From IMG/VR virus record IMGVR_UViG_3300010370_000027: a stretch of DNA of 64,000 nt; one strand, written 5' to 3'. This stretch comes from a virus. Shown one piece after another: positions 1,649-40,142 of the stretch (position 1 is the stretch's first letter; the number at the start of each line of letters is the position of its first letter). A program made the position numbers and the translations under genes. The notes beneath the pieces were generated by a model. That model was given only the letters and a program-made list of their open reading frames with translations, was not told the origin of the DNA and did no database searches.

Positions 1649-1652
1649 GAAT

Positions 1653-4751: not shown

Positions 4752-4758
4752 TAAATAT
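4752..4758 (-). promoter_or_regulatory. Putative late promoter ATATTTA
   Basis: 5 nt upstream of ATG 4746. Confidence 0.6.
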
Positions 4759-5585
4759 CACTCTCCCCACAGATTGTCAAAGGAACACGTGAACTTCTCC
4801 CATGCACCTTCTTTTAACATGGAATTGAAACCGTAGCCAGCGAACACCTCCTTGACGGTGTCCCAGTTCTTGGTGGGCGCCGAGGAAGTCATCTGTGCAA
4901 CTTCCTCCTCAGTCCACTCCTTGAACTTGATGAGATCGTAGTTGCGATTGAAGATCGGTTCCACCTCAGACTTGGCCACGTATTCCTTGAGGAGAACAGG
5001 GTCGAGGGCGATCTTCTCGGCGGTCTTGTCACCAATGCCAGGAACGCCTGGGATGTTGTCGGTGGCATCGCCGCGGAGAGCCTTCCAGACCACATAGTCG
5101 TATTCGGGTGCTTCCACAAACTTCTTCTGGACTGGATTGTAGAGCTTGAGGTTAGGATGGTCCTGCAGGAGTTGGATGAAGTCTGTGTCGGACGAGACGA
5201 GCACCCAGTCCACAGCGGAGGAGGATCGCATGACCAGATTGGCCAGGGTGTCGTCACACTCGCAGGTTGGGTGGCGGACCACGGAGACCGGAAAGTGCTT
5301 CTGAAGGAGGTCCACGATCACGTCCTTCTGCTTGAAGAACTTCTCCAGCTCCTTTGCACGGGGATCGTCGGGCTCCACCTTGCGGTTGGCCTTGTACTCG
5401 CCCATTGCCTCGTAGCGGTGGACAGGTCGACCTTCGAGTGCCACGTAGATCCGAGTAGGCCTGAACTGATCGACCAGCGCCTTGAACTGACGGAAGAAGT
5501 TGAACACAACAGGGGCAGGACCCATCTGGAAGCCGCTGCGTGCACGATGGGCCTGGTTCATGAAGTCGATTGCGAGGATGGTCAT
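4758..5585 (-). CDS. 5'-3' exonuclease / flap endonuclease (PolI N-terminal or T4 RNase H family)
   Basis: ILAIDFMN, YKANR, ECDDTLA, SSDTDFIQL, GDATDNIPGVPGIGDKTA; start set at MTILAID. Confidence 0.92.
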   Translation of the reverse strand: MTILAIDFMNQAHRARSGFQMGPAPVVFNFFRQFKALVDQFRPTRIYVALEGRPVHRYEAMGEYKANRKVEPDDPRAKELEKFFKQKDVIVDLLQKHFPVSVVRHPTCECDDTLANLVMRSSSAVDWVLVSSDTDFIQLLQDHPNLKLYNPVQKKFVEAPEYDYVVWKALRGDATDNIPGVPGIGDKTAEKIALDPVLLKEYVAKSEVEPIFNRNYDLIKFKEWTEEEVAQMTSSAPTKNWDTVKEVFAGYGFNSMLKEGAWEKFTCSFDNLWGE

Positions 5586-5592
5586 GTTGTTC

Positions 5593-5623
5593 AGTATAAC
5601 ACTTGCTTTGGGTGATTTTGCAC
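5593..5623 (-). promoter_or_regulatory. Sigma70-like promoter, leaderless, for the 5'-3' exonuclease
   Basis: GTGCAA-N19-TATACT-N7-ATG. Confidence 0.65.
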
Positions 5624-5814
5624 TATTCGCTGATGCCAAGTTCATCGTCGTCGAAGTGGAACACCTCGTCGATTGCATTACCGATCTCGCGGAGGACATT
5701 CTCTTGGATCATTTGCTTCGTAGGAGTGTCTGTGTGCTTGTGGGCACGCTGCCAGCCCCACTCGAAACCCTCCTCGAGGGCACGCTGTAGAACTCTGTAC
5801 GACTTCACTTTCAT
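5623..5814 (-). CDS. Small hypothetical protein (MKVKSYRVLQRALEEGFEWG...)
   Basis: ATGA overlap with the polX stop; the longer N-terminal extension in the ORF track overlaps polX. Confidence 0.6.
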   Translation of the reverse strand: MKVKSYRVLQRALEEGFEWGWQRAHKHTDTPTKQMIQENVLREIGNAIDEVFHFDDDELGISE

Positions 5815-6395
5815 TGTTGCCTCACGTATTTCTTGATGACATTGCGTCCGGTCCGCTCGACAGGAGGGACGAAGTCCATCTCGAGGAGATCGAAGAAGTC
5901 TTGCTCCTCGTATACAGGAAGCTGAGTGCCATCGGGCATGGTAGGCATCACCTCCGTCATGCGACCACCACCAGACAGCTTCTTCCATCGAGCGAAGCAC
6001 CCAGGAGTGAAGCCGTTGAATGCATTGCCGTCAGCGCCTGCGGCGCTACCGGTACGCATGAGAAACAGACCGCCCCAGTTCTCCGGCTTGGCAATGAAGA
6101 GGTCGAGGTTCATGCCTTCGGAAAGCCGCACACGAATGTAACGAGAGTCGGGCTTTGGGCTCCACGGAATGACACCAGGAACACTTGGTTTAATAGTTTG
6201 ACCAACATCACTGATCAATTTAAGAAGTTTTTCTCGGTCAGCCACAAGGGCCACGAGCTCGATGTCACCTACCACCGGTTTTTCACGTCGGACGGATCCA
6301 GCGATCTCGATGCGATCCATTGCAGGTGAAATGTGCTCGCGGACCTTGTTGGCGATGATTCGTGCCTCGGATAGTTCGATCTTGCCGATTCCCAT
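5811..6395 (-). CDS. polX: Minimal family X DNA polymerase (palm plus C-terminal domain)
   Basis: AGSVRREKPVVGDIELV, LDLF, RTGSA, EEQDFFDLL..FVPPVER; no lyase or PHP domain. Confidence 0.88.
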   Translation of the reverse strand: MGIGKIELSEARIIANKVREHISPAMDRIEIAGSVRREKPVVGDIELVALVADREKLLKLISDVGQTIKPSVPGVIPWSPKPDSRYIRVRLSEGMNLDLFIAKPENWGGLFLMRTGSAAGADGNAFNGFTPGCFARWKKLSGGGRMTEVMPTMPDGTQLPVYEEQDFFDLLEMDFVPPVERTGRNVIKKYVRQQ

Positions 6396-15177: not shown

Positions 15178-15695
15178 GCAGCTCCCCCACCAGACATGGG
15201 ACCAGCAGCACCTGCTTTTGGAGATTGAATTTCATCTTCTTTTTCAGATTCAGACTGGCCTATCTCTATTCCATAGGATTCGAGTAATTCATCTTTGAAA
15301 GACTGCAGTGCATCGCCCTCGTAATTGCCAGAAAGATAATTCGCAGCCCTACGAAGAATGGTGTTCTTAATTTCAAGAAGTGACTCGTAGTTATCAACAA
15401 GACGCATCACATCAGAAACAAAAGAACCCATGTTTATGTCTTCAAGCTTTGCTTTCTCAGGCACTTTTGCCTCGTCCTTGCCTTCGTCGTCAGCCTCTAT
15501 AAGCTTCCGCCAGTCCCAAGTCATCCGCTCATAAGAGGCGGATTCAAATTTTGTCTGGCTTTCTTCCTTTGCTTGAGATTCATACTGCGAAAGATATTTG
15601 TCGATCTGAGAATCGACAGAATCTTCTCCCGCTTCTTTCTTTGGCGTTTCTTCTGCTTCTCGAAGAAGACGTGCAAGTTCTTTTAGAGAACTCAT
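15174..15695 (-). CDS. Acidic hypothetical protein with shared leader
   Basis: MSSLKELARLLREAEE; DSVDSQIDKYL. Confidence 0.65.
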   Translation of the reverse strand: MSSLKELARLLREAEETPKKEAGEDSVDSQIDKYLSQYESQAKEESQTKFESASYERMTWDWRKLIEADDEGKDEAKVPEKAKLEDINMGSFVSDVMRLVDNYESLLEIKNTILRRAANYLSGNYEGDALQSFKDELLESYGIEIGQSESEKEDEIQSPKAGAAGPMSGGGAA

Positions 15696-16420
15696 TACTT
15701 CACCACCGTTGCAATGGCCTCTGCCTTCTTAAATCTATCTTCAATGACAGTCCAGTTGAATTCACGCATCTGTGCTATGAGGTAGCTCTTCTTGTCAGTA
15801 AGATAGTCCTTGTAGTAAGCATGCTCCCACATGTCGACGACGATGAGGGGATAGAATCCAACTGGAACATCTCCGCTGTGGTGTGAGACCATAAAGTTCA
15901 CGTACTTCTTCAGAAACATGTGGTAACCGAGAACTGCCCAGCCGCTGCCCGCTGACAATGCACATGCCATGAAATCACGCTGCCAGTCATCAAACGTTCC
16001 AAAGTCTCTCTCAAGTTTTAGGTAAGAAAGAGAATCCATCACAACTTCGCTGTGGGGATCAAAGCAGTTTGCGAAGTAGAGTTCGTGTAGCCACGTTGCA
16101 TTGAGGTTGTAGGTCTCGTCGAGCTTAAGAGAACGATAGTCTGAGTGACGTGAGTTGACTTCAGTTCTGTTTGCTGTGTCTAACTTCGCAGAAACTTTAT
16201 TCAGAGAATCAACATAGCCCTTATAGAGATCAACATGTGAATCTTTTGTTTTTTGAGAAACGAACTCCGAGACTTGCTTGAAAGGTTTTGGCTCCGCCAC
16301 GTACGATTCATCAAGCGGCTCTGGTAGAACTTTCTCTTTCTTAAAGTGATCTTTGATGCTCTTTTTGATGATGCCGTCGACGTCGACGCCTGTCAACAAG
16401 TTTTTCTTATCATATGACAT
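15695..16420 (-). CDS. sod: Fe/Mn superoxide dismutase with N-terminal extension
   Basis: HVDLYKGYV, LHELYF, GSGWA, DMWEHAYY; start at MSYDKK after GGAGA. Confidence 0.92.
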   Translation of the reverse strand: MSYDKKNLLTGVDVDGIIKKSIKDHFKKEKVLPEPLDESYVAEPKPFKQVSEFVSQKTKDSHVDLYKGYVDSLNKVSAKLDTANRTEVNSRHSDYRSLKLDETYNLNATWLHELYFANCFDPHSEVVMDSLSYLKLERDFGTFDDWQRDFMACALSAGSGWAVLGYHMFLKKYVNFMVSHHSGDVPVGFYPLIVVDMWEHAYYKDYLTDKKSYLIAQMREFNWTVIEDRFKKAEAIATVVK

Positions 16421-16688
16421 ATTCATTCTCCAATGTGTCTTTGTCGACAATAAAGTTTTTACCTTCGGGTGACTTCAGAATGGCATCCTTGGGGCCGACT
16501 GAAACGAGTGTATAAAGCAAGCCTGATTTTTTATGTGTTAGCTTTAGCTCGGGAGAAAGAAGCGGCTTTTCTTTTCCGTCTACTTTGCCTTTAAAGACTG
16601 CATCTACTTCTTCGGCAAGTGTAGCTAGCTTTGCTTCCCACTCTTCTCTCATAATCTTAACAATATCTGATTCTTCAAGCTTCTTCAT
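16410..16688 (-). CDS. Hypothetical protein with shared leader (IVKIMREE)
   Basis: ATATTTA upstream. Confidence 0.65.
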   Translation of the reverse strand: MKKLEESDIVKIMREEWEAKLATLAEEVDAVFKGKVDGKEKPLLSPELKLTHKKSGLLYTLVSVGPKDAILKSPEGKNFIVDKDTLENEYVI

Positions 16689-17115: not shown

Positions 17116-17690
17116 TTTGGAGCCTTGACAATGTGTTGAAATAGTTCTGGGAAGTGCTGGGCGCAACGGGGCTCATATAGCTCTGAGCCGCCAACTTCGA
17201 TCTCTTCTCCACCCATTTGCTTCTTGTGGGTGAAATGAGCGTCTCTTCCGCATATCGTGCAAACAGCGGTGCATTTATGAACCTGTGTAGCCCAGGGAAG
17301 CATCTTCTCTATTTCGTGAAATGTTTTACCAGACGAAGACATCTCAAGAGATGAAACAACGATTGTAAAGCCATATGTGTAAAGCCATATTAGCGTTTCT
17401 GCTGCGCCGGGTATCATGAAGGCTTCGTCTACTGCAACGACTTGTGGTTCGTTTTCTAGACTTGTCAAGTACTCAAGGATTTCTGCGCCAGTTTTTACAC
17501 AAACAGCAGGTATACTACGCCCTCCGTGAGTAACGACATCACTCACGCTGTATCTGTCGTCAATATTAGGCTTGAAAATTTCAATCTTTTTGTGCTGATA
17601 CTTATATTTTTCAAGCGTAGTAAGAAGGCTGCTGGTCTTCGAAGAGAACATCGGGCCGCAGTAGACTATGAATTCTGGATTTGCTAGCAT
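17112..17690 (-). CDS. tdk: Thymidine kinase
   Basis: GPMFSSKT, VDEAF, CTIC, IEVGG.ELYEPRC. Confidence 0.93.
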   Translation of the reverse strand: MLANPEFIVYCGPMFSSKTSSLLTTLEKYKYQHKKIEIFKPNIDDRYSVSDVVTHGGRSIPAVCVKTGAEILEYLTSLENEPQVVAVDEAFMIPGAAETLIWLYTYGFTIVVSSLEMSSSGKTFHEIEKMLPWATQVHKCTAVCTICGRDAHFTHKKQMGGEEIEVGGSELYEPRCAQHFPELFQHIVKAPK

Positions 17691-18655
17691 TTCTTGACCT
17701 CATAGTCCTTGACTGTGTTCCAATTTTTCTCATACCACTCAATTGTTCTATCAAGACCTTCCCAAAATTTAACTACAGGTACGTATCCCAGCTTTTCTTT
17801 TATGTCATCAAGTGCCGCCTGAGTGTGCATAACATCGCCTGCTCGCCAAGGTGCAGAATGATGTTTTGCGTCTGGGTATTTCTTTTTAAGATATTCTAGT
17901 ATGTCCTTGTTGGAAGTTCTCTCTCCGCATGCAACATTAAAGCAGCTTGCTTCAGTCTTTTCAGTTGAAATTGCTGCTCTATAGCATGCATCGACTACGT
18001 TATCTACGTAACATAAGTCTCTTGTCTGCGTTCCATCACCGTCAGACCTCATGGAATTTCCTCGCATTATCGCTGTCATCCAGGCTGACACTGCTGTAGA
18101 ATACGGAGAATTACCAAGCTGTCTGGGACCGAAGACATTAAAAAACCGCAGACTAATGGAATCTAGTTCGTAATGCATCCAATATTGCTTTAGATAGTCT
18201 TCTATGATTGACTTTTGCAAAGCATAGGGTGACTTTGGATTCTTTTGGTAGGTGGTTGGCGTGGGTAGAACATCAGCTCCTCCATAAACGGAAGAAGAAG
18301 ATGCAAATACAAATCTTGTTATATTGCCTCTGCAAGCTTCTATCAGTTCAAGCGTCTTCGTTACATTTGTCTCGTGAGTAAAAACGGGATGATCGACAGA
18401 AAAAGACACACGAGGAATTGCAGCAAGGTGAAAAACATAATCATAGATGCCTGATCGAACTCTATCAAGCACTGTCTTTGATGCAAAATCATCAATCATA
18501 ACCGCGTCAGGCTTTAGAGAAGAGTTAATATTCTCTTTGTGACCAGACACGAGATTGTCAACAATATGAACTTCCCAGCCTTCTCTTACGAGCCTATCAG
18601 TCAGATGACTACCTATAAATCCAGCTGCCCCAGTTATTAACGCTCTTTTCGACAT
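17684..18655 (-). CDS. NAD-dependent NDP-sugar epimerase/dehydratase (GalE/WbpP-like)
   Basis: TGAAGFIGSHL, ASSSSVYG, YALQK, RFFNVFGPRQ, GDGTQTRD. Confidence 0.93.
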   Translation of the reverse strand: MSKRALITGAAGFIGSHLTDRLVREGWEVHIVDNLVSGHKENINSSLKPDAVMIDDFASKTVLDRVRSGIYDYVFHLAAIPRVSFSVDHPVFTHETNVTKTLELIEACRGNITRFVFASSSSVYGGADVLPTPTTYQKNPKSPYALQKSIIEDYLKQYWMHYELDSISLRFFNVFGPRQLGNSPYSTAVSAWMTAIMRGNSMRSDGDGTQTRDLCYVDNVVDACYRAAISTEKTEASCFNVACGERTSNKDILEYLKKKYPDAKHHSAPWRAGDVMHTQAALDDIKEKLGYVPVVKFWEGLDRTIEWYEKNWNTVKDYEVKKC

Positions 18656-19125: not shown

Positions 19126-20127
19126 TTATGCTTCCTTCTTCCAGAAGCTATACATTTTCTTTTCGATCTCATAATTCATCATCTTGACAGTTCGATTTGG
19201 TTGCGATGTAGCCCATACGAACATCTTCTCTATGAGATCATTAAAGTCTGTCTCATCTTTGAACCCAAGATCTTTCTTGGCTTTGCTGTGATCGCAATAA
19301 GCAAGTTTTACTTCATCTCTGGCTTCAAGATGAACTAGGCTCGTATTATAGCCAAGCTTGTTTGCAACGCTGCAAAATCGATTGGCAGCTTCGAGAATTG
19401 TCATTTCTGTGTCTGCGCCTATGTTATAGGTTTGACAATCACCTACCATCATAAGCTTTTCAAAAGGCTCCATGTAATACTTGATATCAGAGAACGATCT
19501 AACCTGAGAACCATCTCCATAGACTGTAAGTGGCTGTCCAGACAATGTCTGTCTAATCCAAATGCCAAGTACATTCCGATATTTGTCCCAAATATTCTGA
19601 TATATCCCGAAGACGTTATGGGGTCTAACTATAGAATAGTTCAAGCCGAAAAATCGAGAAGCTTGTTGTAAATCCATCTCTATCGCATACTTTGCTATTC
19701 CGTATGGATCTTCTGGATTTGGTGTCATTTCCTCTGTGTAGGGCGGCTGGTATGCACTCCCATACACATCCATCGAAGAAGTAAAAATTACCTTCTTTAC
19801 ATCGTTATTGATGCAGCTATTGATTAAGTTGACAGAAGCAACAACGTTGTTCGTGTAGTTAAAATTTCTGATAAATGGACTTAAACCAACAGCAGCGTAA
19901 GCTGCAAAATGATAAGCATAATCGGGCTTTGTATCCTTGAAAACTCTGTCTATTTTCTCAGCATCAACAAGATTTCTTTCATAGAAATCAACTCTTGGAT
20001 CAATATTTTCTATATAACCGCCACTAAGATCGTCAACTCCTACAACTTCATGCCCTTTTTCAAGGAGATGACGTGTAAAATGCGATCCCAAGAGACCAGC
20101 ACACCCAGTTACAAGTATCTTTGACAT
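19126..20127 (-). CDS. Second NAD-dependent NDP-sugar epimerase/dehydratase
   Basis: TGCAGLLGSH, TSSMDVYG, YGIAK, RPHNVFG, GDGSQVRSF. Confidence 0.93.
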   Translation of the reverse strand: MSKILVTGCAGLLGSHFTRHLLEKGHEVVGVDDLSGGYIENIDPRVDFYERNLVDAEKIDRVFKDTKPDYAYHFAAYAAVGLSPFIRNFNYTNNVVASVNLINSCINNDVKKVIFTSSMDVYGSAYQPPYTEEMTPNPEDPYGIAKYAIEMDLQQASRFFGLNYSIVRPHNVFGIYQNIWDKYRNVLGIWIRQTLSGQPLTVYGDGSQVRSFSDIKYYMEPFEKLMMVGDCQTYNIGADTEMTILEAANRFCSVANKLGYNTSLVHLEARDEVKLAYCDHSKAKKDLGFKDETDFNDLIEKMFVWATSQPNRTVKMMNYEIEKKMYSFWKKEA

Positions 20128-20135
20128 GAAATCAA

Positions 20136-21053
20136 TTATACCTTGTCGTGGCGAACGTGAAGACTATTATAGTTTACATCGAGAAAAATTTGCTTGGGAT
20201 TCCAAGAGAAGATTCTTGCAATTTCTGCTGAAAGATGAGAGAGAAATCTAAGATCTGCCGATCCGTTTTTGATGGAGTCAGTACTTCTAAGACCACACAA
20301 TACTCTTAAGCTGCCTGATCTGTTCAGAAAGTGGATCGAAGATATGCAGGTATCACTTGAATAGAAGAATCTTCTCGTATCCAACCCTTGCGGAGAATTG
20401 TAAGGATTTTCTCCAGCAGTTTCCTTCTGAATAACTTCTTTACACTTGTCAAAAATGCCTTTAAAGTATTCAGCTTCATGTTCAACAAACATGACGTCTG
20501 GGTCTTTGTACTCTGGTGAGAGATTTAGCCGGAGACCAAACTGAATCTCAGCGTCTGAATCTAATTTGGTCCACATTCTACTGAGGGAACCAAGCATTGC
20601 AGGTGTGAGCTGCTCATACTGATTCAATGCTCGTAAGGCAAGTTGAGTTACTTCTCGCTTGCTACAATTGCTCCTAATCACAAAAACATTGGGTAGCGAT
20701 TCAATCTTCTCTGTCTCTTCTAGAAAAATATCATAAAGACGACTGAGAGAGATTTCATTCTGAAATTCGTCGCCTCGTTCACGAAGCCTATTCAAAATCA
20801 CATCTTTTTCTGGGAGAAGAATTACAAAAAAGTTATTTGCATTACAAAGCTCTTCTCTAAGAGAGAATCTTAGTTCCTCAACGACGGGTCTGTCATACAG
20901 ACGAGCATAGCACAGAGTAGAAAGATAGGACCTGTCTCTAATATTTCTAATAAATGCTGTTGCCTTATTGAGGTCTGAATAAAGAGAAGTTTTTCCGCTG
21001 CAATCAGGACCCTCTAGAATGACATATCTTACAGGTAGGCTGCTCAAATTCAT
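20136..21053 (-). CDS. Fusion of a dNMP kinase with a truncated thymidylate-synthase/dCMP-hydroxymethylase-like domain
   Basis: N-terminal ILEGPDCSGKT and DRSYLS; C-terminal DTRR, TCISSIHF, RSTD.......D, SLHV. Confidence 0.75.
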   Translation of the reverse strand: MNLSSLPVRYVILEGPDCSGKTSLYSDLNKATAFIRNIRDRSYLSTLCYARLYDRPVVEELRFSLREELCNANNFFVILLPEKDVILNRLRERGDEFQNEISLSRLYDIFLEETEKIESLPNVFVIRSNCSKREVTQLALRALNQYEQLTPAMLGSLSRMWTKLDSDAEIQFGLRLNLSPEYKDPDVMFVEHEAEYFKGIFDKCKEVIQKETAGENPYNSPQGLDTRRFFYSSDTCISSIHFLNRSGSLRVLCGLRSTDSIKNGSADLRFLSHLSAEIARIFSWNPKQIFLDVNYNSLHVRHDKV

Positions 21054-24000
21054 ACCATTTGCCTCATCTTAAAAATTGAAGTAGAAAATCCCCATTGAGC
21101 GTCGTGCTGAGCCTTGCACACCCAGAGAGTGTAAGGCTTGATGTCTTCTTGGGGTGTGCCCCATACCCTAATCCTTGACGTCCTGAATGTATTGTCAAGG
21201 GTCTTAATTGCATAAAAAACCTTTCCGTTCTTCGTCTTTTTCATCTCGACCGAGGACGCGCAAAACCATCCAATTCCCTCAGATCCTGCAGGTATTTCAT
21301 GTAGACTTGGAACCTCTTTTTCTTCAACCTTCTTCATAACATCTGGTGGGAACAGTAGGTCTGAATCGATTGTAGAGGTAAGCTCATATCTGACCCCAAT
21401 CTTCTCTTCTCTGTCCCAGTCTTGCGTGGAAGAAAGCTCCTCTAAGAGAAAATCTAGGATGGGCATTACAGGTTCTCCAAGTTTCTCCTTCTTTTTCATC
21501 TGGGAAGGTGTCAAACCATAATAACCTTTTCTCAGCGTTTCATAGTTATCGCCCTCAGTAAGAGCCATTAAAAGCTGTCTATGATTTGCAACACGACCAT
21601 ACTGAAAATCCTCTAAAGATTCAAGTGCCTCTATTCTGCAAAGCGCTGTAAGAACGGTCTTGTTAATCTTGCTAGGTCTCCATGTGCCCGCTTCATCAAA
21701 GAGCATGCTGCTAAGGTTCTTATAGGGTCTACTTGCTAGAATCTCGTCGACTGCGGATGAACCAATTCCCTTCACAGAAGTCAAAGGAGGAACGAAAGCC
21801 TGCGCAGCATCAGAATATTGCCATTCTTTTCCCGAGTAATTAACATCTATCTTCGAGAAAGAATAGCCGATCGTCTTGATCTCAGAAATAGCCTTGGCAA
21901 GAGCGTCTGGATTGGAGTTCTCTGACTGTAGAATAGTTGCAAGCCATTCCTTCTCGTAGTGAGTGTGGAGCCATGCTGCATAGTAAGAATCAAGTGCATA
22001 TGCGACCGAGTGTGACTTATTAAAGCCGTAAAGAGAGAAGAATTCAATCTTGTCAAAAAGCTCATGCATCATCTTCTCGTCAAGGTCGTGAAGGCGCTTT
22101 GCTCCACTAACAAACCGCTCTCTAAGAACAGCTCTTTCGCCGCCTTTTTTGTCAGCAGTGTCAAGAGACTTCTTTACGAGAGTCTTTCGCATCTGATCAG
22201 CTTCGCCTTCAGAGAATCCAGAGAGCTCCATTGCAAGCAACATGAACTGCTCCTGGAAAGTGATGAAGCCCCTGGTCGCTCCGAGAACTTTCTCGATGAG
22301 AGGATGGTCGTACTTAATTTTAGAAAGGTCTTTCCCGGCATCGACGTACATGTTATGAACGTTCGCCTTGAGCGGTCCAGGACGATAGATTGCTGTAACT
22401 GCAGCTAGCTCGTCGATATTATTGGGCTTTGCCTGCATACAGAACTTTCGTGCACCACTCGCAGTAAATTGGAACACACCTACAAAGTTTCCCTTATGAT
22501 ACACGTGATCCCATACTTTGGGGTCGTCCTGTTTGACATATCGACAGTTAAGATGCTTGTCGAAAAAAGTCTTAATGTCTGTAAAAGAAGGATCTGGGTT
22601 GCCTTCCTTAACGAGAATGCGTCTAATGCAGTTCTCAACATCCTTGAGAAGTGTGAGTCCCAAGAAGTCGAACTTAAGGAACCCGTTCTCCTCTAGATTT
22701 CTGAAGTTCATACCTTCAGACCAAGGAGTCTGTAGTTCACCTCTGACACCGATGATAGGCATGGTAGCTGCGAGATCATCAGGATCGGCGACAAGAACAC
22801 CGCCCGCGTGGCGACCGACAGAACGATTCTGCATGAAGAGCGTTTCGACGTGCGCCGCTACGTCGGGGTATTTCTCCATGAAGTCTTTGTACTTTGGAGA
22901 ATATTTCATGCAGTCCTCGTGTTTCAAAACAAAGACCGACTTTTCAGTATCGTCATCTCGCGCCTGATTCATTACCTCGTCTTGTAGCGGTCCTGTCATC
23001 TCATTGACTTCTTCGAAGGGAACTCCGTAGATCTTAGAGATGTCTTTTACCAATGATTTAAGCTTCAAGGTGTTGAAGTTAGATACTGGGATTACTGCGT
23101 CGTCGCCAAATAGTTCGCGCGCAGAATCGATGAGTACATCACGGTCACCGGCGTCAGAGTCAATGTCGGGCCATGCAACCTTTTGACGATTGAGGAATCG
23201 ACCCCACAGTAGATTATATGGAATTGGATCAATCTGAGTGATACCGAGAAGAAAGTTGACGAGAGATCCGGCTCCGCTTCCTCTTCCTGGTCCGAGAAGA
23301 GTCCGCTCTTCAGACTTCTTGAAGATCTTATACATCGTGACGAAGTAAGAAGAGTGTCCCAAGAATTTGATGTCAGACAGCTCCATCTTTGCTCGCTCGA
23401 TATATTCAGCCTTGTCCGAAAGACCTTCGCGCTCGAGGCCTTCTTTTACGAGCTTCGTTAGCTGTTGGAACGTGGAGTTACCAGGTTCGTCGAGGTGCGG
23501 AAGTTTTGCCTTGACAGGAATCCAGGTGTCTTCGCATTCTTGCCACGCAAGATCGTGAGTTCTCTCAATCGAATCGCGAACAAGCTCTTCGGTACCCTGA
23601 TAGAATTCATATTGTTCATATGACTTTAGAAATTCATCCCACATCTGGGTGGCATTCTTCGGATATAGTTCGCACTTAAGATCCTCAAATCTTGGAAGTG
23701 CGCCTTGATCGAGTTTCGCACCCATCCAGCCGAGCTTCTTGTAAAGTTCGCGTGCTTGCCACTTAGACGGGTCTGGGTAGTGAGAATCGCATGTGGAGAT
23801 AAGCGGGATACCCGTTTTCTTATGCAAATCAATTAGATACTTGTTGACTGTATGTTGCTTCTCAAGCTTATTGAACTGCAACTCCAAGAAGAAGTTATTG
23901 CGTCCAACAGCATCTACAAAACGATCTGCAACGTTCTCGATGTCACTGAGAATCTCTTGCCCAGTCTTGCCATGCGCTTCTCCAAGAAGAATCTTGGAGG

Positions 24001-24646
24001 AGAAGTATCCGCCAAGGCAAGCGGTCGACCAGATGATATCTGATCCGTACCTAGACAAGAGATCGAAATCGATTCGAGGATATCGATAGAAACCGTCCTT
24101 GTACGACAGCTTCACGAGTCTGTAGAGATTGGCCAGGCCGTTCTTATTTTTTGCAACTGCGACCAAGTGGTAACGCCTTTGCCAATCTTTCGATTTAACG
24201 TCGACAGTCTTTGTTTCATTCTCGTCCTCTACGACGAGACCACCCTGTTCCTCTTCGTCTGCATCGACGTCCGTAGGTGTCTTGGCACGCTTTTCAGCCT
24301 CGGCTGCACTCTTGGCGTCCTTGATAGATTGCTTGTGAGCTTCGTAGTCGAGCGACCATTGAGTCAGCGAGGGAACGAAGTAGAACTCAACACCGTACAG
24401 CTGGCGATACTTGATGCCCTTCTTCTGGATCTTGGCGGCTGCATTCTTGGCGTGTGCGTGACCGTTGCCGTTGCCGTGGTCGGTCAAGGCCCAGGCATCC
24501 ATTCCCTGAGATTCAGACGTCACAAATGAAATGTGATCTCCTGGATAGCCGAGACCGTCAAATGTTGAAAATCCTGAGTGCGAGTGTAAACCGACGAACC
24601 GATTCGGAGGCCTGATTTCATCCAGCGACTTAATGAGACTTGACAT
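21050..24646 (-). CDS. dnaE: DNA polymerase III alpha subunit (family C)
   Basis: PHP domain (LHSHS, TDHG, DSHY), GRGSGAGSL, PDIDSD, HAGGV, KFDFLGL, YGFNKSH, C-terminal OB fold. Confidence 0.97.
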   Translation of the reverse strand: MSSLIKSLDEIRPPNRFVGLHSHSGFSTFDGLGYPGDHISFVTSESQGMDAWALTDHGNGNGHAHAKNAAAKIQKKGIKYRQLYGVEFYFVPSLTQWSLDYEAHKQSIKDAKSAAEAEKRAKTPTDVDADEEEQGGLVVEDENETKTVDVKSKDWQRRYHLVAVAKNKNGLANLYRLVKLSYKDGFYRYPRIDFDLLSRYGSDIIWSTACLGGYFSSKILLGEAHGKTGQEILSDIENVADRFVDAVGRNNFFLELQFNKLEKQHTVNKYLIDLHKKTGIPLISTCDSHYPDPSKWQARELYKKLGWMGAKLDQGALPRFEDLKCELYPKNATQMWDEFLKSYEQYEFYQGTEELVRDSIERTHDLAWQECEDTWIPVKAKLPHLDEPGNSTFQQLTKLVKEGLEREGLSDKAEYIERAKMELSDIKFLGHSSYFVTMYKIFKKSEERTLLGPGRGSGAGSLVNFLLGITQIDPIPYNLLWGRFLNRQKVAWPDIDSDAGDRDVLIDSARELFGDDAVIPVSNFNTLKLKSLVKDISKIYGVPFEEVNEMTGPLQDEVMNQARDDDTEKSVFVLKHEDCMKYSPKYKDFMEKYPDVAAHVETLFMQNRSVGRHAGGVLVADPDDLAATMPIIGVRGELQTPWSEGMNFRNLEENGFLKFDFLGLTLLKDVENCIRRILVKEGNPDPSFTDIKTFFDKHLNCRYVKQDDPKVWDHVYHKGNFVGVFQFTASGARKFCMQAKPNNIDELAAVTAIYRPGPLKANVHNMYVDAGKDLSKIKYDHPLIEKVLGATRGFITFQEQFMLLAMELSGFSEGEADQMRKTLVKKSLDTADKKGGERAVLRERFVSGAKRLHDLDEKMMHELFDKIEFFSLYGFNKSHSVAYALDSYYAAWLHTHYEKEWLATILQSENSNPDALAKAISEIKTIGYSFSKIDVNYSGKEWQYSDAAQAFVPPLTSVKGIGSSAVDEILASRPYKNLSSMLFDEAGTWRPSKINKTVLTALCRIEALESLEDFQYGRVANHRQLLMALTEGDNYETLRKGYYGLTPSQMKKKEKLGEPVMPILDFLLEELSSTQDWDREEKIGVRYELTSTIDSDLLFPPDVMKKVEEKEVPSLHEIPAGSEGIGWFCASSVEMKKTKNGKVFYAIKTLDNTFRTSRIRVWGTPQEDIKPYTLWVCKAQHDAQWGFSTSIFKMRQMV

Positions 24647-25023: not shown

Positions 25024-25485
25024 TCACTCGATTTCCTTATCGTAAGGTTCGTAGAGCATCTTACCTGCATCCCTGCAGCGATTAAGATAGTCCTCAAGCT
25101 GATCGAACGTGGTACAAACCTTAATACCAGATCGACTGAGCATTAGGTTGAACTTGGCTCCTGGTGGGAGGTTCTCACAGAAATAGACGATCTTGCGGTC
25201 AAGGGCGAATGCAGCTCCTGCCTCCCAGATTGTGCCGATGTCACGATAGGTGGTGTTAACAAGAGTGAAGTCGCATTCGCGGATGTGCTTCATGTTACCC
25301 TTGAAGACGTTGTCCTGAACCTCGAGAGAGGCATCTGGTGGGCAAACGAAGATGCGACGAGGAGATGCAAGCTCGATCCAGTCCTCACGGCTGTCAAAGA
25401 CAGCTTCAAGCTTCGTGAGTTGCTTGTCCTGGTCTGGCGAAAACCACCCTGATGCCAAATAGACATGTTGTTTACGATCGAACAT
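25024..25485 (-). CDS. Nucleoside 2-deoxyribosyltransferase / dNMP N-glycosidase family protein
   Basis: VYLASGWF, SPR, DIGTIWEAGAAFAL.RKIV, FNLML. Confidence 0.88.
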   Translation of the reverse strand: MFDRKQHVYLASGWFSPDQDKQLTKLEAVFDSREDWIELASPRRIFVCPPDASLEVQDNVFKGNMKHIRECDFTLVNTTYRDIGTIWEAGAAFALDRKIVYFCENLPPGAKFNLMLSRSGIKVCTTFDQLEDYLNRCRDAGKMLYEPYDKEIE

Positions 25486-25712
25486 TATTGACTCCTCCGC
25501 TTGTATTCCTGTCGACGTGCTTCCATCTCACTCCACACGTCGTCGTGTGTGAGAACAATGCTAAGACATTGTGTCACAGCATCTGTGATCTGATCGTTGA
25601 TGCCCTTCGGCATGTTCATGTTCTGCATAACGTGTGCAATGAGTTCTAGATCATCCATCTTCTTCATGTTACTTACCAGCTTTCCAGGCATCATGTTGCG
25701 CCTTGAGTCCAT
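25485..25712 (-). CDS. Small hypothetical protein
   Basis: Fills the gap between the ThyX-like gene and the NDT gene; true start may be a later Met. Confidence 0.55.
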   Translation of the reverse strand: MDSRRNMMPGKLVSNMKKMDDLELIAHVMQNMNMPKGINDQITDAVTQCLSIVLTHDDVWSEMEARRQEYKRRSQ

Positions 25713-26652
25713 CCCAGTCCTTCATATCTGCGTTCCACAGTTCGGTGAACCTCTTCTGTGGACCATCGCCGTGGGTACCATTGATCTCCTCCCTCGTGCA
25801 CTGGTAGATCGTGTCGTTCGGGTGGAACTCGAACTTGTCGTTCTTTGGAATAGGCCAGTAGAGGTTAGTGCCACGGGACACGAACTTGTCACCTTCCTTC
25901 ACGCGGAAGGTCTTGATGTAGTGCATATCGGGCTTGTTGAAGTCGATCACCGACGTGAACTCAGGAATCACCTTGGCGACTTCTACGGCCATTCTCGAGG
26001 CGAGGAGGTTGTCAGCAGCAGGCTGGATCTGCGTGTCCATGCGCTGGTAAATGAAACCGATGAGGTCCTTGAGCGACAGTCGCATGTAGTAGAACGAGGT
26101 CATGCACTTCGGGAGGATGAGTCGGGCATCCATCATGGAGACCGCCTTGGAGTCGACCATCTCAGCGTAAAGTTCCTTGGAGTCGTTTACGATCTTCTCC
26201 CAGCGGCGAAGGAAGTCGGGCGAGTTCTGCACGGGTTCCGGAACGACCACGTCGTCATCACGGAGGTCGCGATCACCCGTGCACTGTGCAGCGAAAGTAC
26301 CTGCACGGTGGCGAATGATGTGAGTCACCTCCTGGAAGGACAGGCCGCTGAGACGGAACGTGAAGCCGAGGCACTCCATTGGAGCAGGAAGAGTGCGCCC
26401 ACCAAATACGTCCTCGAGGTTCTTGGAGAGTTCCTGCTGCGACACTCCTTCAGTCGGGTCGATGTCTGGGCGATCTGCCCAGGTGGCCTTGACGTAGTGC
26501 CATGCCACGTTCCATGCCTGTTGGCGGGTCGGGTGATCGACTAGCTCCACTTTGAGAGCGTCGAGGTTGTTAAGGAAAGTGGTCTTCGGTTCTTGACCGA
26601 ACTTGAGGACCATTGGGAGTTCGATTGGTTCTAGATCTTTATTGATGGGCAT
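25669..26652 (-). CDS. Divergent ThyX-fold flavoprotein with C-terminal extension
   Basis: KVELVD, FTFRLSGLS, IIRHR, DARLILP, QR; the motif after RHR is AGTFAAQCTGD instead of xxSxxQxSxRY. Confidence 0.8.
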   Translation of the reverse strand: MPINKDLEPIELPMVLKFGQEPKTTFLNNLDALKVELVDHPTRQQAWNVAWHYVKATWADRPDIDPTEGVSQQELSKNLEDVFGGRTLPAPMECLGFTFRLSGLSFQEVTHIIRHRAGTFAAQCTGDRDLRDDDVVVPEPVQNSPDFLRRWEKIVNDSKELYAEMVDSKAVSMMDARLILPKCMTSFYYMRLSLKDLIGFIYQRMDTQIQPAADNLLASRMAVEVAKVIPEFTSVIDFNKPDMHYIKTFRVKEGDKFVSRGTNLYWPIPKNDKFEFHPNDTIYQCTREEINGTHGDGPQKRFTELWNADMKDWDGLKAQHDAWKAGK

Positions 26653-30160: not shown

Positions 30161-31102
30161 TCAGACAACTGGGATAAAATCAATGGGATTGCATCCTTTT
30201 GGAACATACGATATGTTATTAATTCCTTTGACTTCCTGATTGTATGATTTTTCCGGAACCATGACTTTTACATCATGCTTGGCATATTCTGCAGCGTGCT
30301 TCGCAGAGTCATCGATTGCAAAGTACTTGCCTTTGCTGTAATACGGCTGCTTGGTGAGCCAAACAAACTTCTCTGGTGCGAAGGCAACTCCGTCTGCATC
30401 TATCTTGTTCATAGAGAGCCAGGCGTACGTATCATAAAAACAATTGAGCTCATTCTCAGGACGAGAAGTTATGATCTGAATCCAGTATCCTTGCGACTTG
30501 AGATGATTCAGCAGAGCGATATATGCTTCGTCCCTCTCTAGCAAAGCAAGACCGTGACAGTCTATGAACTCTTTGAAATATCCTTCGCTGTTAATGTCAA
30601 GCTTCTTAAACTCGCGAACGTTATAGTATTCATCACTTTCTGGGTCGATGAAATGACCGCATTTTCTCGATGACCAATCGCAGAAAGACTTTCTAAAATT
30701 TGCTAATACATCATCCATGTCGAAAAGAGCGACAGGCTGTTCACCATCCCAGCATCTTCCAGCCATCTTGTGTCTGTAGTGAAGAAAGCTGTTCTTTTGG
30801 TCCAGGGCAGCTGCAAAATTATTCGAGTCAATTCCCCACAGGTTAAGGATGGCTAGAATATATCGATAAGCATCGACTGTCTTGAAGAGGATCTTTGCTA
30901 TGTCTACGGGACCTTCTGAAGTTCTATGATCCTTATAGTTAACAGCTTCTACGATTCCTGTTGCCTCTGAGTGCAATGCAAGAACAAGCGTCTTTAAGTG
31001 TTCTTCTCTCTGTTTTTCAGTTAGCTTTGAAGAATCAAAGAAAAGATCAGAGAAGTCTTTTTGAGCTGCTAGAGATTCATCGAGATTATTCCAGTTAGGC
31101 AT
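30161..31102 (-). CDS. Fusion of a degenerate all-alpha NTP-pyrophosphatase domain with a HAD 5'-nucleotidase (NT5C-like)
   Basis: N-terminal HSEATGIVEAVNYKDH..VD; C-terminal FDMDDVL, ITSR, K, IDD. Confidence 0.78.
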   Translation of the reverse strand: MPNWNNLDESLAAQKDFSDLFFDSSKLTEKQREEHLKTLVLALHSEATGIVEAVNYKDHRTSEGPVDIAKILFKTVDAYRYILAILNLWGIDSNNFAAALDQKNSFLHYRHKMAGRCWDGEQPVALFDMDDVLANFRKSFCDWSSRKCGHFIDPESDEYYNVREFKKLDINSEGYFKEFIDCHGLALLERDEAYIALLNHLKSQGYWIQIITSRPENELNCFYDTYAWLSMNKIDADGVAFAPEKFVWLTKQPYYSKGKYFAIDDSAKHAAEYAKHDVKVMVPEKSYNQEVKGINNISYVPKGCNPIDFIPVV

Positions 31103-31479
31103 TAGTAGTCTTTCTTCAGCCTGTCATGAATGATACTGTCTTTTCTAGTATAAGCTTCAAACAACTCTTCTGCATCGATGCCTAGCATGACGAGGACAGA
31201 AAGAAAGTAATTGAACGCGTCTACATACTCTTCAAGAAAAGCTTCGTGATCAAAATCTGCAATCTCTGTCGTTCTATGTGGCTTCCAGTTCTTTAGATGC
31301 GCAAGAGACTCAAACATCTCCTCGACTCCCTTCAAAACTGTATCTCGAACAACTTGCTGAGACTCTTTCCTAGAAATGTCAACAGGCCACGATTGCAGAA
31401 CAGCAGGCCTCTTTGCAGCCAAGTCTCTCATAAACTTCTCTCGAAGCTCTAGCATCTTAGTAAGTTTGCAACTATCCAT
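31102..31479 (-). CDS. All-alpha NTP pyrophosphatase (dimeric dUTPase/dCTPase/MazG-like)
   Basis: EEMFESLAHLKNWKPH, EEYVDAFNYF, YTRKD..IHDR; start set at MDSCK. Confidence 0.8.
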   Translation of the reverse strand: MDSCKLTKMLELREKFMRDLAAKRPAVLQSWPVDISRKESQQVVRDTVLKGVEEMFESLAHLKNWKPHRTTEIADFDHEAFLEEYVDAFNYFLSVLVMLGIDAEELFEAYTRKDSIIHDRLKKDY

Positions 31480-31488
31480 ATCTGTTAG

Positions 31489-31528
31489 ATCATATAAACG
31501 TCCAAACAGTAAGTACAATGCATATTTA
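31489..31528. promoter_or_regulatory. Back-to-back promoters: sigma70-like on minus, ATATTTA on plus
   Basis: Minus TTGTAC-N18-TATGAT; plus ATATTTA at 31522-31528, 5 nt before ATG 31534. Confidence 0.62.
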
Positions 31529-31533
31529 GAAGT

Positions 31534-31872
31534 ATGAAGAGAAGCATCGTTGAAATAATACAGGAAAGATTCGGTGATCCTATTGGAAGTTACGCTGGTG
31601 ATGCGCCAGCAGGTGTTCGAAGCATTGATGAGAGCATCTGTCCCGAATGCGGCATGAAAGACTGCGAATGCGAACACACAAACGAAGCTGAGGCTTGCAC
31701 GCAATGTGGCTACATGAAAATCGAAGGATCTTGTGGTTGCACTCACCTCGACGAAGCAAAGAAGAAAAAGAGAGGTCTCTGGGCGAACATTCATGCCAGA
31801 CGCAAGGCAGGTAAACGTCCTAAGCGACCAGGAGAGAAGGGCTATCCTGAAACGTTAGACGTAACCAAATAA
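31534..31872 (+). CDS. Small Cys-rich/basic protein with shared leader
   Basis: ATATTTA 5 nt upstream; MKRSIVEIIQE; CPECG, CTQCG; GLWANIHARRK..PGEKGYP; followed by a terminator. Confidence 0.75.
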   Translation: MKRSIVEIIQERFGDPIGSYAGDAPAGVRSIDESICPECGMKDCECEHTNEAEACTQCGYMKIEGSCGCTHLDEAKKKKRGLWANIHARRKAGKRPKRPGEKGYPETLDVTK

Positions 31873-35043: not shown

Positions 35044-35574
35044 CTAACTATCTAACGAAAAGAAAGAAGTCCAGTCAGGATGCCAAGTTCCTGTCGGGCT
35101 AACGTCCCAGAAGTGATTCATTAGAGGAATAGTAGGAGCCTTTCTAAGATGCATTCCAGACTCAGCAAGAAGCCTAGAGCCTTTCTTTAGATTGCACCTC
35201 TTGCAAGCAGAGACACAGTTTTTCCAGTCAGTTCCACCGCCTTTGGAGCGAGGCAATACGTGGTCAATTGTGATCGTCTTGTAATCAAGATTTATTCCGC
35301 AATATTGGCACTGCCAGTTATCACGATTAAATAGAACTCTTTTTCTAAACCTTGGTGTAGAGTATTTTCGTGTTACGCGGTCCAAAAGTCTAACAGTTGC
35401 AGGAACCCTATAGGCTTTGCCTGGTGATGTGTATATTTCGTCCCAAGAGCTTGACTGCTCTCCCATTATTATGACTTCTGCTCTTCCCTTGAAGAGGAGA
35501 TTAAGGGCCCGGATTGAGGACACAAAATTTAGCGGAGTCCAGTCGGCGTTAAGAAGTAATACATTTCTTTTCAT
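35044..35574 (-). CDS. HNH endonuclease (McrA-like)
   Basis: VLLLNAD, RD..CQYCG, TIDHVLPRSKGG..W.NCV.AC..CN..K. Confidence 0.92.
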   Translation of the reverse strand: MKRNVLLLNADWTPLNFVSSIRALNLLFKGRAEVIIMGEQSSSWDEIYTSPGKAYRVPATVRLLDRVTRKYSTPRFRKRVLFNRDNWQCQYCGINLDYKTITIDHVLPRSKGGGTDWKNCVSACKRCNLKKGSRLLAESGMHLRKAPTIPLMNHFWDVSPTGTWHPDWTSFFSLDS

Positions 35575-36527
35575 GACGACATCTTGAAGTCAAATGATAC
35601 TTCGCCCGTGTCCGCATCAACGCAAGTATTTGCGCCGATAGGTATCGGGCTCGTGAGGGGGCCGTGGGAGAAACTGTAGCCGTAAGCACAAGGTGGACCA
35701 TGACCGCAATATTCGAGAAGAACGTCTTCTACTGATGGAACCTTCCCTTCGAGATCTTTCGGTACGTCCTCAAATTGTCCAACGACAATTCCTGAAACAC
35801 TACCAAGAAAACCAGAGAGTCGCAGGTGAAGAAACTCTCGAGAAAGCTCAACGCCTTCCTTGTGAACATCCTCTACGAATAGAATCATATTCTCAGGGAT
35901 GGGCATATAGGGGGTTCCAACTAGATGGACAAAAGTGTCAAGATTTCCTCCAATAGAAATTCCCGAGACTTTTCCGGGAGATACTGTTCTTGGAAAGAAA
36001 GGATTAAAGTAGAAGGGACGAGAACCCCACAGTTGGTCGGACTTAAGCAATTCAAGAGTAAGTTTGAAAGATTCTGAGTCCGCCTCTTGAATTTTTCTTC
36101 CCTTGTCCAGACGAATAGAGGGCGTCTGGCCATTTATAGAAATGAGACCAGACTTGGTAAACAGTGCTGTGTTGATCGCAGTGAGATCAGACATTCCCAA
36201 AAATGGCTTTTGGGAAGCACGTATCTTGTCGTAATCAAGATAGGGAAGAACTGCTGCAGATCCTTCACCTCCAACAGCACCTATGACTCCTGCAATGCCA
36301 GGCTGTGAAAATGCCCAGTTGAGCTCATCAACTCTATCTCTAACAGAGCCTGCATGATCTCCTGTAGTCTTAAGATTCTTAACACAAGGTCCCAAGACAG
36401 GCTCAAGGCCGCACTCTCTGATGATATCAATTCCTGCCTGGACTTCGTCCGAGACGATAGGGCCAGAAGGAGCCACAATAGCTACGCGAGAGTTATTACG
36501 TAATCGTCTTGGAGGAAGAATTAGCAT
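35571..36527 (-). CDS. LD-carboxypeptidase (peptidase S66, LdcA/MccF family)
   Basis: IVAPS, GGEGS, GMSDLT (Ser), GGNL, LFVED (Glu), FSHG (His). Confidence 0.92.
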   Translation of the reverse strand: MLILPPRRLRNNSRVAIVAPSGPIVSDEVQAGIDIIRECGLEPVLGPCVKNLKTTGDHAGSVRDRVDELNWAFSQPGIAGVIGAVGGEGSAAVLPYLDYDKIRASQKPFLGMSDLTAINTALFTKSGLISINGQTPSIRLDKGRKIQEADSESFKLTLELLKSDQLWGSRPFYFNPFFPRTVSPGKVSGISIGGNLDTFVHLVGTPYMPIPENMILFVEDVHKEGVELSREFLHLRLSGFLGSVSGIVVGQFEDVPKDLEGKVPSVEDVLLEYCGHGPPCAYGYSFSHGPLTSPIPIGANTCVDADTGEVSFDFKMSS

Positions 36528-36542
36528 GATGTAATTATTATG

Positions 36543-39551: not shown

Positions 39552-40142
39552 TCAAGATGGTATGTTCCTTGTAGTCTTTAACACCACGATTATTTCTGTA
39601 AATACTGATTCTTTAGATCTATCTGAAGCTACTATGTGAGCTTCTTTTGGGTTCTTGTTGACCCAGTCAGCATAAAGCTTTCTCACTTTTTCCTGAAGCT
39701 CGTTATCTTTCTCATAGACGTCTTCAGCGACGTGTGCGTGGGGCTTGCCAAGAAGCACAAGCGTGTAATCTGGTTTTCTTAGCTTTCTATAGAAATAGTT
39801 GACAAATCCGTCATCGACTCCGGCAGCCTTGCCATACACTGTCGTAGAGAGACTCCACCTGTCAAAGATGAGATAGTCATATTCGTGATCGAGATCTGAA
39901 AGTTCTTTCGTTTGAAAGAGCCAGCGATTGAGGAACTGAGTGAGCTGAAAGATTCTTGGGAATTTTTTAGCGTGTCCCTTCTCAAGCATCCAGTAAATTG
40001 CGTCGTATGTAACTTTATCGTGTATGGGAACTTCCACCACTTTAGCTTTCTTTCCGCATTGCCAAAGATATTCACAGAGTAGCGCACTCTGTGTGGCCTT
40101 GCCGCATCTATCAGGTCCTTCAATCACTATGATCTTGCTCAT
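39552..40142 (-). CDS. tmk: Thymidylate kinase
   Basis: IEGPDRCGKATQ, FDRWSLS, KPD, D.YE. Confidence 0.9.
   Translation of the reverse strand: MSKIIVIEGPDRCGKATQSALLCEYLWQCGKKAKVVEVPIHDKVTYDAIYWMLEKGHAKKFPRIFQLTQFLNRWLFQTKELSDLDHEYDYLIFDRWSLSTTVYGKAAGVDDGFVNYFYRKLRKPDYTLVLLGKPHAHVAEDVYEKDNELQEKVRKLYADWVNKNPKEAHIVASDRSKESVFTEIIVVLKTTRNIPS

Follow-up and report, generated by a model that had tools for sequence, protein, structure and literature searches.

A kinase/minimal thymidylate-synthase fusion encoded next to dnaE in a large uncultured phage: a candidate enzyme for making a modified cytosine nucleotide before replication

The window analysed here, the whole 64,000-nucleotide stretch of the virus record IMGVR_UViG_3300010370_000027 (IMG/VR), is part of a large uncultured phage. 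Positions 20136-21053 hold, on the minus strand, a single unbroken open reading frame (ORF) of 305 codons; the plus-strand frame of the same interval contains many stops. The product (P0001, 305 amino acids, aa) joins a P-loop nucleotide kinase to a shortened thymidylate-synthase (TS)-fold domain, referred to below as mini-TS. The gene is preceded by a GAGG 8 nt upstream of its ATG, which overlaps the TGA stop codon of the upstream dnaE gene (1198 aa product), and the ATG of an epimerase gene lies 8 nt past its own stop codon. An earlier sequence-only reading had proposed a P-loop (d)NMP kinase fused to a minimal TS-fold domain, and this is borne out by the models, structure searches and profiles described below. 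It had also placed the gene correctly at 20136-21053 (we add that it lies on the minus strand), and the ATGA overlap and the epimerase next in line that it reported are read directly from the sequence, as are all of the motifs that it quoted: DTRR (R227, R228), DTC (C236), RSTD (R256-D259), RSTDSIKNGSAD ending in D267 and NSLHV (H299). The gene and its parts are as follows.

20136-21053, minus strand: kinase/mini-TS fusion, whole ORF, 305 aa plus stop (P0001; from the ORF list, translation, homologues and AF2 model)
20607-21053, minus strand: N-terminal P-loop nucleotide-kinase domain, about residues 1-149 (VIA-align structure matches, weak library profiles)
20988-21011, minus strand: P-loop G15-P-D17-C-S-G20-K21-T22 (conservation in 157 homologues)
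20139-20606, minus strand: C-terminal minimal TS-fold domain, residues 150-305, 156 aa (model, structure and profile searches)
20370-20375, minus strand: Arg227-Arg228 (AGA AGA), equivalent to ThyA R126/R127, nucleotide phosphate binding (aligned to SRR of RB69 gp48)
20346-20348, minus strand: Cys236 codon TGC, equivalent to the catalytic nucleophile ThyA C146 / T4 dCMP hydroxymethylase (dCH) C148 (HMMER alignment)
20253-20255, minus strand: Asp267 codon GAT, base-specificity site equivalent to ThyA N177 / T4 dCH D179 (HMMER alignment)
21050-21053, minus strand: ATGA, fusion start codon overlapping the dnaE stop codon, translational coupling (sequence, ORF ends)

In its modelled fold and its conserved catalytic motifs, the N-terminal half is a nucleotide kinase of the YorR/thymidylate-kinase type. 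The full-length AF2 model, built with the homologue alignment, is a confident single unit (pLDDT 94.9, pTM 0.90), and VIA-align matched its residues 9-158 to YorR of the Bacillus subtilis SPbeta prophage (2axp/3kb2) with Z 14.2, while the kinase domain matched the M. mycoides deoxyadenosine kinase dAK with Z 13.7 and the S. aureus TMK with Z 13.4. YorR is the best match by sequence (profile E 1.9e-12) as well as by structure, and the two proteins have the EGPDxxxK P-loop and the DRxxxS motif in common; YorR differs in being a 173-aa stand-alone protein without a TS-like domain. Library profiles match the kinase half only weakly, each under its curated threshold: the thymidylate kinases of PHROG 761 (E 4e-11), Pfam PF02223 (22.9 bits versus a cut-off of 27, covering model positions 84-181 alone) and TIGR00041 (E 2e-5, 24 versus 83 bits). 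Close homologues of about 300 aa number 87, all of them metagenomic. We assessed conservation in 157 full-length homologues, and further in a second set of 53 viral loci with identity down to 28% and a third of 46 short homologues. In the 157 homologues, the P-loop residues D17 (154), G20 and K21 (155 each) and T/S22 (147) are retained, and GPDxxGKT, D40-R41-S42, R89 and the LID residues R93-G-D95 are likewise conserved. Fold and motifs would be compatible with either a dNMP or a nucleoside as acceptor.

The C-terminal half is a 156-aa member of the thymidylate-synthase/dCMP-hydroxymethylase superfamily. Modelled alone, the domain reaches a pLDDT of 95.2, and an exhaustive comparison of this model with 48,161 representative chains returned the TS family throughout the top seven (Z 8.4-10.3, with 134-144 of the 156 residues aligned), the next fold scoring Z 5.6. 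These matches comprise ThyA (Z 9.2-10.3), the flavin dCMP monooxygenase 9iqc (Z 10.2 over 144 residues), MilA (Z 9.3) and the T4 dCMP hydroxymethylase gp42 (Z 8.4), so that the two proteins with which the sequence-only reading had suggested a structural comparison, T4 gp42 and ThyA, are both among them. Similarly, the 50 best Foldseek matches of mini-TS belong only to the TS family, with the AfhB structures 9iqu and 9iqc at ranks 1-2 and with concordant results from the PDB and from viral models. At the sequence level, a profile of the C-terminal domain detected 310 cluster representatives (50% identity), mostly fusions of 300 aa together with some stand-alone forms of 160-230 aa. With the stand-alone forms included, a family profile matches T4 dCMP hydroxymethylase (E 2.4e-6) and AfhB (E 0.005), and the HMMER alignment places the family Cys, Asp and His on T4 dCH C148, D179 and H216 and RSTD on RSND. 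An hhalign comparison with RB69 gp48 (E 1.5e-5) also aligned SRR, C, RSxN/D, D and H, and in tblastn a stand-alone mini-TS relative matched annotated phage dCMP hydroxymethylases. The stand-alone forms show RSSDxxxLLPxD, which is the RSxDxxLGLPFN of ThyA with Asn177 changed to Asp. On the other hand, the Pfam TS profile PF00303 had no match to the fusion even at E 1, and NCBIfam gave no TS match either. Two-copy complex predictions of the mini-TS domain scored 0.15, 0.53 and 0.12, values that bear on a homodimer neither way.

Conservation of the TS-type residues is close to complete. Asp267 is kept in all 157 homologues, Arg227 and Ser257 in 154, Cys236 and Arg256 in 153, His299 in 152, Glu193 in 151, Tyr196 in 146 and Arg228 in 145. 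Arg227, Arg228, Arg256 and Ser257 take the places of the phosphate-binding ThyA residues R126, R127, R166 and S167. Equivalents of Cys236 and Asp267 are present in 45 and 44 of the 46 short homologues, and the viral loci repeat the pattern, with Asp267 in all 52 loci having that site. Two assignments of the sequence-only reading, the catalytic Cys and the Asp aligned with ThyA Asn177, thus hold in nearly every homologue; a C-terminal domain outside the TS fold, or loss of Cys and Asp among homologues, would have spoken against them, and neither was found. Glu193 opens the helix that comes after strand 1 and, by topology only, would occupy the place of ThyA Glu58. The spacing of the motifs follows E. 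coli ThyA as well (Cys-20-Arg-Ser-x-Asp-7-Asn/Asp-about 30-His): Cys to Arg is 20 and Arg to Asp267/Asn177 is 11 in both proteins, and Asp267 to His299 is 32, compared with 30 from Asn177 to His207 in ThyA, a motif-and-spacing agreement far above chance. The spacing uses the ThyA positions R126, R127, R166 and H207. Otherwise, ThyA numbering follows PMC13326640, as does the meaning of Asp at the N177 site, which marks cytosine-type enzymes. The site equivalent to ThyA D169, by contrast, varies, with D in 103, N in 44, H in 4 and E in 3 of the homologues and D in 12, N in 26 and E in 14 of the viral loci; it is Asp259 (in RSTD) in the window protein. Because the catalytic residues of both kinase and TS are conserved down to 28% identity, both domains are apparently active, the TS half being apparently of the cytosine type.

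Mini-TS lacks about 100 residues of an ordinary TS (156 aa versus 246-264 aa). Only 49 residues separate strand 1 from the RR pair (about 88 in E. coli ThyA) and only six follow His299 (57 in ThyA). From RR to Cys there are 8, compared with 19 in ThyA and 24 in RB69 gp48 (16 extra in the hhalign alignment), which agrees with the sequence-only reading that this loop is unusually short. The same reading had the kinase replacing the N-terminal region of the TS, a view that we reject on the grounds that the structural alignments already cover the TS chains from their N-terminal ends (model residues 1-156 against 9iqc 14-230 and 3ix6 -1-215). This leaves helix A and strand 1 in place, so that the shrinkage consists of two internal deletions plus the loss of the C-terminal third. 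On the secondary-structure map that we assume for ThyA, the missing parts correspond approximately to residues 40-125, 133-145 and all beyond 210, segments which we take to hold W80, W83, Y94, L143 and the C-terminal lid, that is, most of the folate site. The folate-binding elements therefore appear to be absent from mini-TS; the absence of these segments is observed, whereas their role in binding folate is presumed from the ThyA structure. The earlier suggestion of a donor other than folate fits this apparent loss, and a flavin-dependent dCMP hydroxylase is among the nearest structures.

The fusion lies in a window that encodes two sets of nucleotide genes. All window genes are densely packed on the minus strand. 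Among them are those for DnaE, ribonucleotide reductase, DnaB, UvsX, a gp32-like protein and dUTPase, besides many ORFs without a library match, and an Rfam search of the window gave no match. Gene absences reported here apply within these 64 kb. The neighbouring and companion genes are listed below.

21050-24646, minus strand: DnaE-type DNA polymerase III alpha, directly upstream of the fusion (Pfam PHP, DNA_pol3_alpha, finger and HHH_6)
19126-20127, minus strand: NAD-dependent epimerase/dehydratase, directly downstream, a neighbour specific to this clade, its link to the fusion unproven (Pfam Epimerase 159 bits; GalE 156 bits, under cut-off)
25024-25485, minus strand: nucleoside 2-deoxyribosyltransferase (NDT)-family protein (P0236), a probable member of the module (PF05014 50 bits; PDB 6evs E 6e-11)
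25669-26652, minus strand: divergent ThyX paralogue ThyX' (P0234, 327 aa), the putative companion of mini-TS (Pfam Thy1 64 bits)
39552-40798, minus strand: canonical Tmk (39552-40142) overlapping canonical ThyX (40139-40798), the ordinary dTMP/dTDP route (PF02223 47 bits over model positions 1-185; Thy1 126 bits)

With a canonical ThyX and Tmk as well as dUTPase, TK and dCMP deaminase encoded in the window, this phage does not need the fusion to supply itself with ordinary dTTP. The second, atypical set surrounds DnaE and comprises the fusion, the divergent ThyX', the NDT-family protein and an NT5C-like nucleotidase. ThyX' carries the motif RHRAGTFAAQCTGDR, compared with KHRIGVSVNGESARY in the canonical ThyX, with a Cys where, in the numbering that we assume, canonical ThyX has the non-essential second Ser of the motif. 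A possible dCTPase at 31102-31794 could not be confirmed, this ORF giving a weak C-terminal match to dUTPase_2 and weak alpha/beta-hydrolase matches.

In 53 related viral loci, DnaE (53 loci) is followed in conserved order by the fusion (53), the epimerase where present (37), TK (46), dCMP deaminase (47) and a superoxide-dismutase (SOD)-like protein (39). A DnaE homologue lies within the flank of the fusion in all 53, mostly directly upstream. In six loci (L003, L011, L015, L018, L020 and L023), 2-6 kb separate the end of the DnaE match from the fusion or the DnaE match is partial, which suggests inserted genes, inteins or homing endonucleases. We rejected the epimerase as a core partner, since it is absent from 16 of the 53 loci and from the other mini-TS lineages. 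Five relatives of 200-284 kb each encode one canonical and one divergent ThyX, and none of the five has a PF00303 TS. Canonical Tmk is present in one of these five and missing from four, one of which is rated 100% complete; both the window and G001, a close relative, encode a canonical Tmk apart from the fusion.

The module also recurs without fusion: in other phage lineages, an unfused mini-TS occurs beside a small kinase and adjacent to a replicative polymerase. The same divergent ThyX paralogue is present in three out of four contexts of this kind. The clearest case is locus L058, from another type of phage with a family-B polymerase (PolB) fused to uracil-DNA-glycosylase (UDG), in which the order is Tmk-like kinase (172 aa), NDT, HD/YfbR-type 5'-nucleotidase, ThyX (290 aa), stand-alone mini-TS (P0213, 166 aa) and UDG-PolB. 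There, the start of mini-TS overlaps the end of the thyX gene; this ThyX is orthologous to the window ThyX' (38% identity, E 4e-70) rather than to the canonical ThyX, and the NDT is orthologous to the window NDT (38% identity, E 2e-26). In L061, a 145-aa kinase that aligns to the N-terminal domain of the fusion (hhalign 90.7%, E 1.2e-6) precedes, together with an aldo-keto reductase, a radical-SAM protein and a 377-aa ThyX' relative, a stand-alone mini-TS directly before DnaE. In L055, only a homing-endonuclease-like gene separates the small kinase from mini-TS, and this kinase aligns to the fusion N-domain, as the L058 kinase does. Finally, the 218-aa mini-TS of L063/L064 has a dCMP deaminase on one side and a dUTPase_2 protein with DnaE on the other, after which come two ThyX genes, one canonical and one long; a 317-aa gene overlapping the L063 mini-TS was considered as a ThyX' relative and dismissed on comparison. 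In these neighbourhoods we also noted that the aldo-keto reductase and radical-SAM/SPASM genes of L061 (L061:4844-6990) lie between the small kinase and mini-TS and may encode extra tailoring enzymes of the same pathway, that the DnaE of this locus contains an intein, and that UDG domains are found near stand-alone mini-TS genes at L058:6488-9364 (the PolB fusion), L060:764-1357 and L061:3860-4429 (both free-standing).

A scan with ThyX' returned 113 viral relatives. Among loci with full flanks, 18 of 35 have mini-TS 4-9 kb downstream of ThyX' on the same strand, and by contig name ThyX' occurs on at least 34 of the 53 fusion contigs. Across the clade ThyX' is far better conserved (57-98% identity for the best 80 of the 113 relatives) than the fusion (28-69%). 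We regard ThyX' as the best candidate for the missing cofactor half, which would provide flavin and/or a one-carbon group: it accompanies mini-TS across several phage lineages, and in one of them the two genes are translationally coupled.

Known enzymes offer partial parallels. Among solved structures, T4 gp42 (1b49/1b5d/6a9a) is the best relative at the sequence level and has the same TS fold, and its logic is that modified dCMP is made before replication and then phosphorylated. It differs in that gp42, with 246 aa, binds methylene-tetrahydrofolate, whereas the 156-aa mini-TS lacks the pre-Cys loop, the C-terminal third and, on the map assumed above, the folate helices; moreover, T4 has a separate dNMP kinase, gp1, whereas the kinase of the fusion is joined to mini-TS and is of the YorR/Tmk type. 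ThyA itself has Asn177 where mini-TS has Asp, besides the roughly 100 additional residues and the PF00303 profile that misses mini-TS. An NDT-family gene accompanies mini-TS both in the window and in L058, which parallels the MilA/MilB pair, MilB being the NDT-family N-glycosidase of mildiomycin biosynthesis. MilA, the CMP hydroxymethylase of that pathway, has Asp at the N177 site like mini-TS (PMC13326640). It differs in exceeding 300 aa, depending on folate, acting on CMP and belonging to a bacterial antibiotic pathway. The flavin/O2-dependent 5-hydroxy-dCMP synthases AfhB of phage HY126 (9iqu, 9iqc), RB69 gp48, DLP3 gp80 and RL38JI gp216 also have Asp at the N177 site and are folate-independent, but they are single-domain proteins of 217-238 aa with Asn at the D169 site, where the fusion has Asp (PMC13326640). 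RB69 gp48 is an experimentally verified 5-hydroxy-dCMP synthase, and the published 5-hydroxycytosine clusters have, next to the TS homologue, a gene for a YorR/Tmk-like nucleotide kinase (DLP3 gp78, RB69 gp45 and RL38JI gp214; PMC13326640 Table 1).

Taken together, these comparisons lead us to propose, at about even chances, that the fusion is a bifunctional enzyme that makes a C5-modified cytosine deoxynucleotide before replication, its kinase committing the product to DNA. Action on dCMP, with the product channelled to the fused kinase, was also proposed in the sequence-only reading. We favor a pre-replicative C5-modified dCMP module because T4 and RB69 set this paradigm. Mini-TS would bind a cytosine deoxynucleotide (dCMP), Cys236 would add to C6 while Asp267 protonates N3, and the activated C5 would take a group from a donor that mini-TS cannot hold alone; the fused kinase would then phosphorylate the product to the diphosphate, en route to a triphosphate for the co-translated DnaE, and ThyX' would supply the missing cofactor function (flavin and/or one-carbon). 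A more specific proposal, which we consider clearly unlikely in this exact form, is that mini-TS and ThyX' constitute a two-part pyrimidine-modifying enzyme in which the open-faced mini-TS keeps dCMP bound as the Cys236 adduct, a flavin-bound one-carbon or oxygen group comes from ThyX' and the kinase commits the product. If true, large aquatic phages of a widespread clade would use a new enzymatic route, probably one leading to a new derivative of cytosine.

Several observations weigh against a bifunctional cytosine-modifying enzyme. The mini-TS model has no evident cofactor pocket, and catalysis is for this reason inferred from residue conservation alone. The loop bearing the phosphate-binding R21 of ThyA has no visible counterpart, the fused family having DSDAE and no Arg-containing loop between helix A and strand 1; another residue may take its place. 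The link to ThyX' is one of gene neighbourhood only. When 50,697 phage records were searched by tblastn, with the whole protein and with mini-TS as queries, no cultured phage with the gene was found: mini-TS had no match, and the only match was a weak one to the kinase, in Pelagibacter phage HTVC200P. In addition, the D169 site is variable and the Asp of the window protein is not the Asn marker of known 5-hydroxy-dCMP synthases, this Asn being their published diagnostic (PMC13326640). Lastly, because four of the five large relatives lack a canonical Tmk, the fused kinase could simply be the thymidylate/dNMP kinase in most of the clade.

This last point leads to an alternative that we judge unlikely, namely that the protein is essentially a phage thymidylate/dNMP kinase whose TS-derived domain is a non-catalytic nucleotide-binding module for regulation or docking (for example dCMP sensing or a tether to a ThyX/DnaE supply complex). 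The four large relatives without another Tmk-family gene, the apparent lack of the cofactor-binding parts of TS and the full-length model, one rigid unit at pTM 0.90, would all fit such a protein. However, pseudoenzymes normally lose the nucleophile, whereas Cys236, Glu193, His299 and the Asp are kept in 151-157 of the 157 homologues, and the same residues persist in the 160-230 aa stand-alone forms that have no kinase; the window and G001, moreover, carry a canonical Tmk of their own. Decidedly improbable, in our estimate, is a flavin/O2-dependent 5-hydroxy-dCMP synthase of the AfhB/RB69 gp48 type fused to the kinase, with free reduced flavin as a loose co-substrate and the 5-hydroxycytosine later glycosylated with sugars prepared by the epimerases. 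AfhB-type enzymes do bind flavin loosely (PMC13326640), 9iqu and 9iqc are among the best structural matches, Asn occupies the D169 site in 44 of 157 homologues and 26 of 53 viral loci, and epimerases adjoin the gene in 37 of 53 loci in addition to the UDP-sugar-type genes of the window. Yet the window protein has Asp and not Asn at this site, mini-TS is 60-80 residues shorter than AfhB, the Z scores of ThyA, AfhB and MilA are tied, the other mini-TS lineages have no epimerases, and library scans of the window proteins found no DNA glycosyltransferase. A cofactor-independent reaction through Cys addition at C6, be it hydrolytic deamination of the 5,6-dihydro adduct, exchange of the proton at C5, or the loss or rearrangement of a C5 group put in place by another enzyme, for example ThyX', is very improbable. 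Such an activity would account for the retention of the nucleotide site and the nucleophile alone, and TS and C5-methyltransferases show, to our knowledge, side reactions of this kind without a donor; on the other hand, the zinc dCMP deaminase in 47 of 53 loci would make a second deaminase redundant, and kinase fusion and polymerase coupling suggest a product destined for DNA.

The proposed bifunctional cytosine-modifying enzyme would extend known phage chemistry. Modified bases let phages evade restriction and CRISPR, and all pre-replicative pyrimidine modifications that we know of begin with a TS homologue of full size that uses a folate or flavin co-substrate. The TS domain described here is cut to its nucleotide-activating core, is joined to its own kinase or lies next to it, and is linked to the replicative polymerase; it recurs in 310 clusters. 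If active, it would represent an undescribed way of donating a group to cytosine C5, perhaps through a ThyX-type partner, and thereby an unrecognised DNA chemistry in abundant environmental viruses, and it would define the minimal catalytic core of a well-studied fold. The mini-TS family has so far been found in metagenomic and viral contigs only: a feature search of the ESM Atlas returned viral clusters only, and a pattern scan of the GTDB species genomes (185,579 cellular genomes) detected no relative. Our literature search found no description of a dCMP-hydroxymethylase/kinase fusion, and the MetaGPA paper (PMC8670742) makes no mention of Tmk, ThyX or DnaE. New here are the modules in which mini-TS is unfused, the orthologous relationship of ThyX', the finding that the D169 site varies between D, N and E, and the lack of a canonical Tmk in most relatives.

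Other features of the window merit mention. The Fe/Mn SOD-like protein (15695-16450, minus strand; Sod_Fe_C 73 bits) is encoded within the nucleotide-metabolism block, which is unusual in a phage; a tie to flavin/O2 chemistry is only a guess. A UTP-glucose-1-phosphate uridylyltransferase-like protein is encoded beside a NUDIX-domain protein at 644-2492 (minus strand), and this pair together with two epimerases (17684-18655 and 19126-20127) indicates that the phage handles NDP-sugars; no glycosyltransferase of any kind turned up in the window. At 35044-37331 (minus strand), genes for an HNH endonuclease, an LD-carboxypeptidase (Peptidase_S66) and an N6/N4 DNA methyltransferase stand in a row; since a DNA methylase is encoded, the phage would also modify its DNA after replication. 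The replication gene cluster includes a volactin-family actin homologue (PF25216, 226 bits) at 46917-47921 (minus strand). Weak matches to a family-A polymerase (31.6 bits, under cut-off) and to a Pol-beta thumb lie at 51785-52993 and 5811-6395, respectively (both minus strand), and two FEN/5'-3' exonuclease genes are found at 4758-5699 and 45557-46525.

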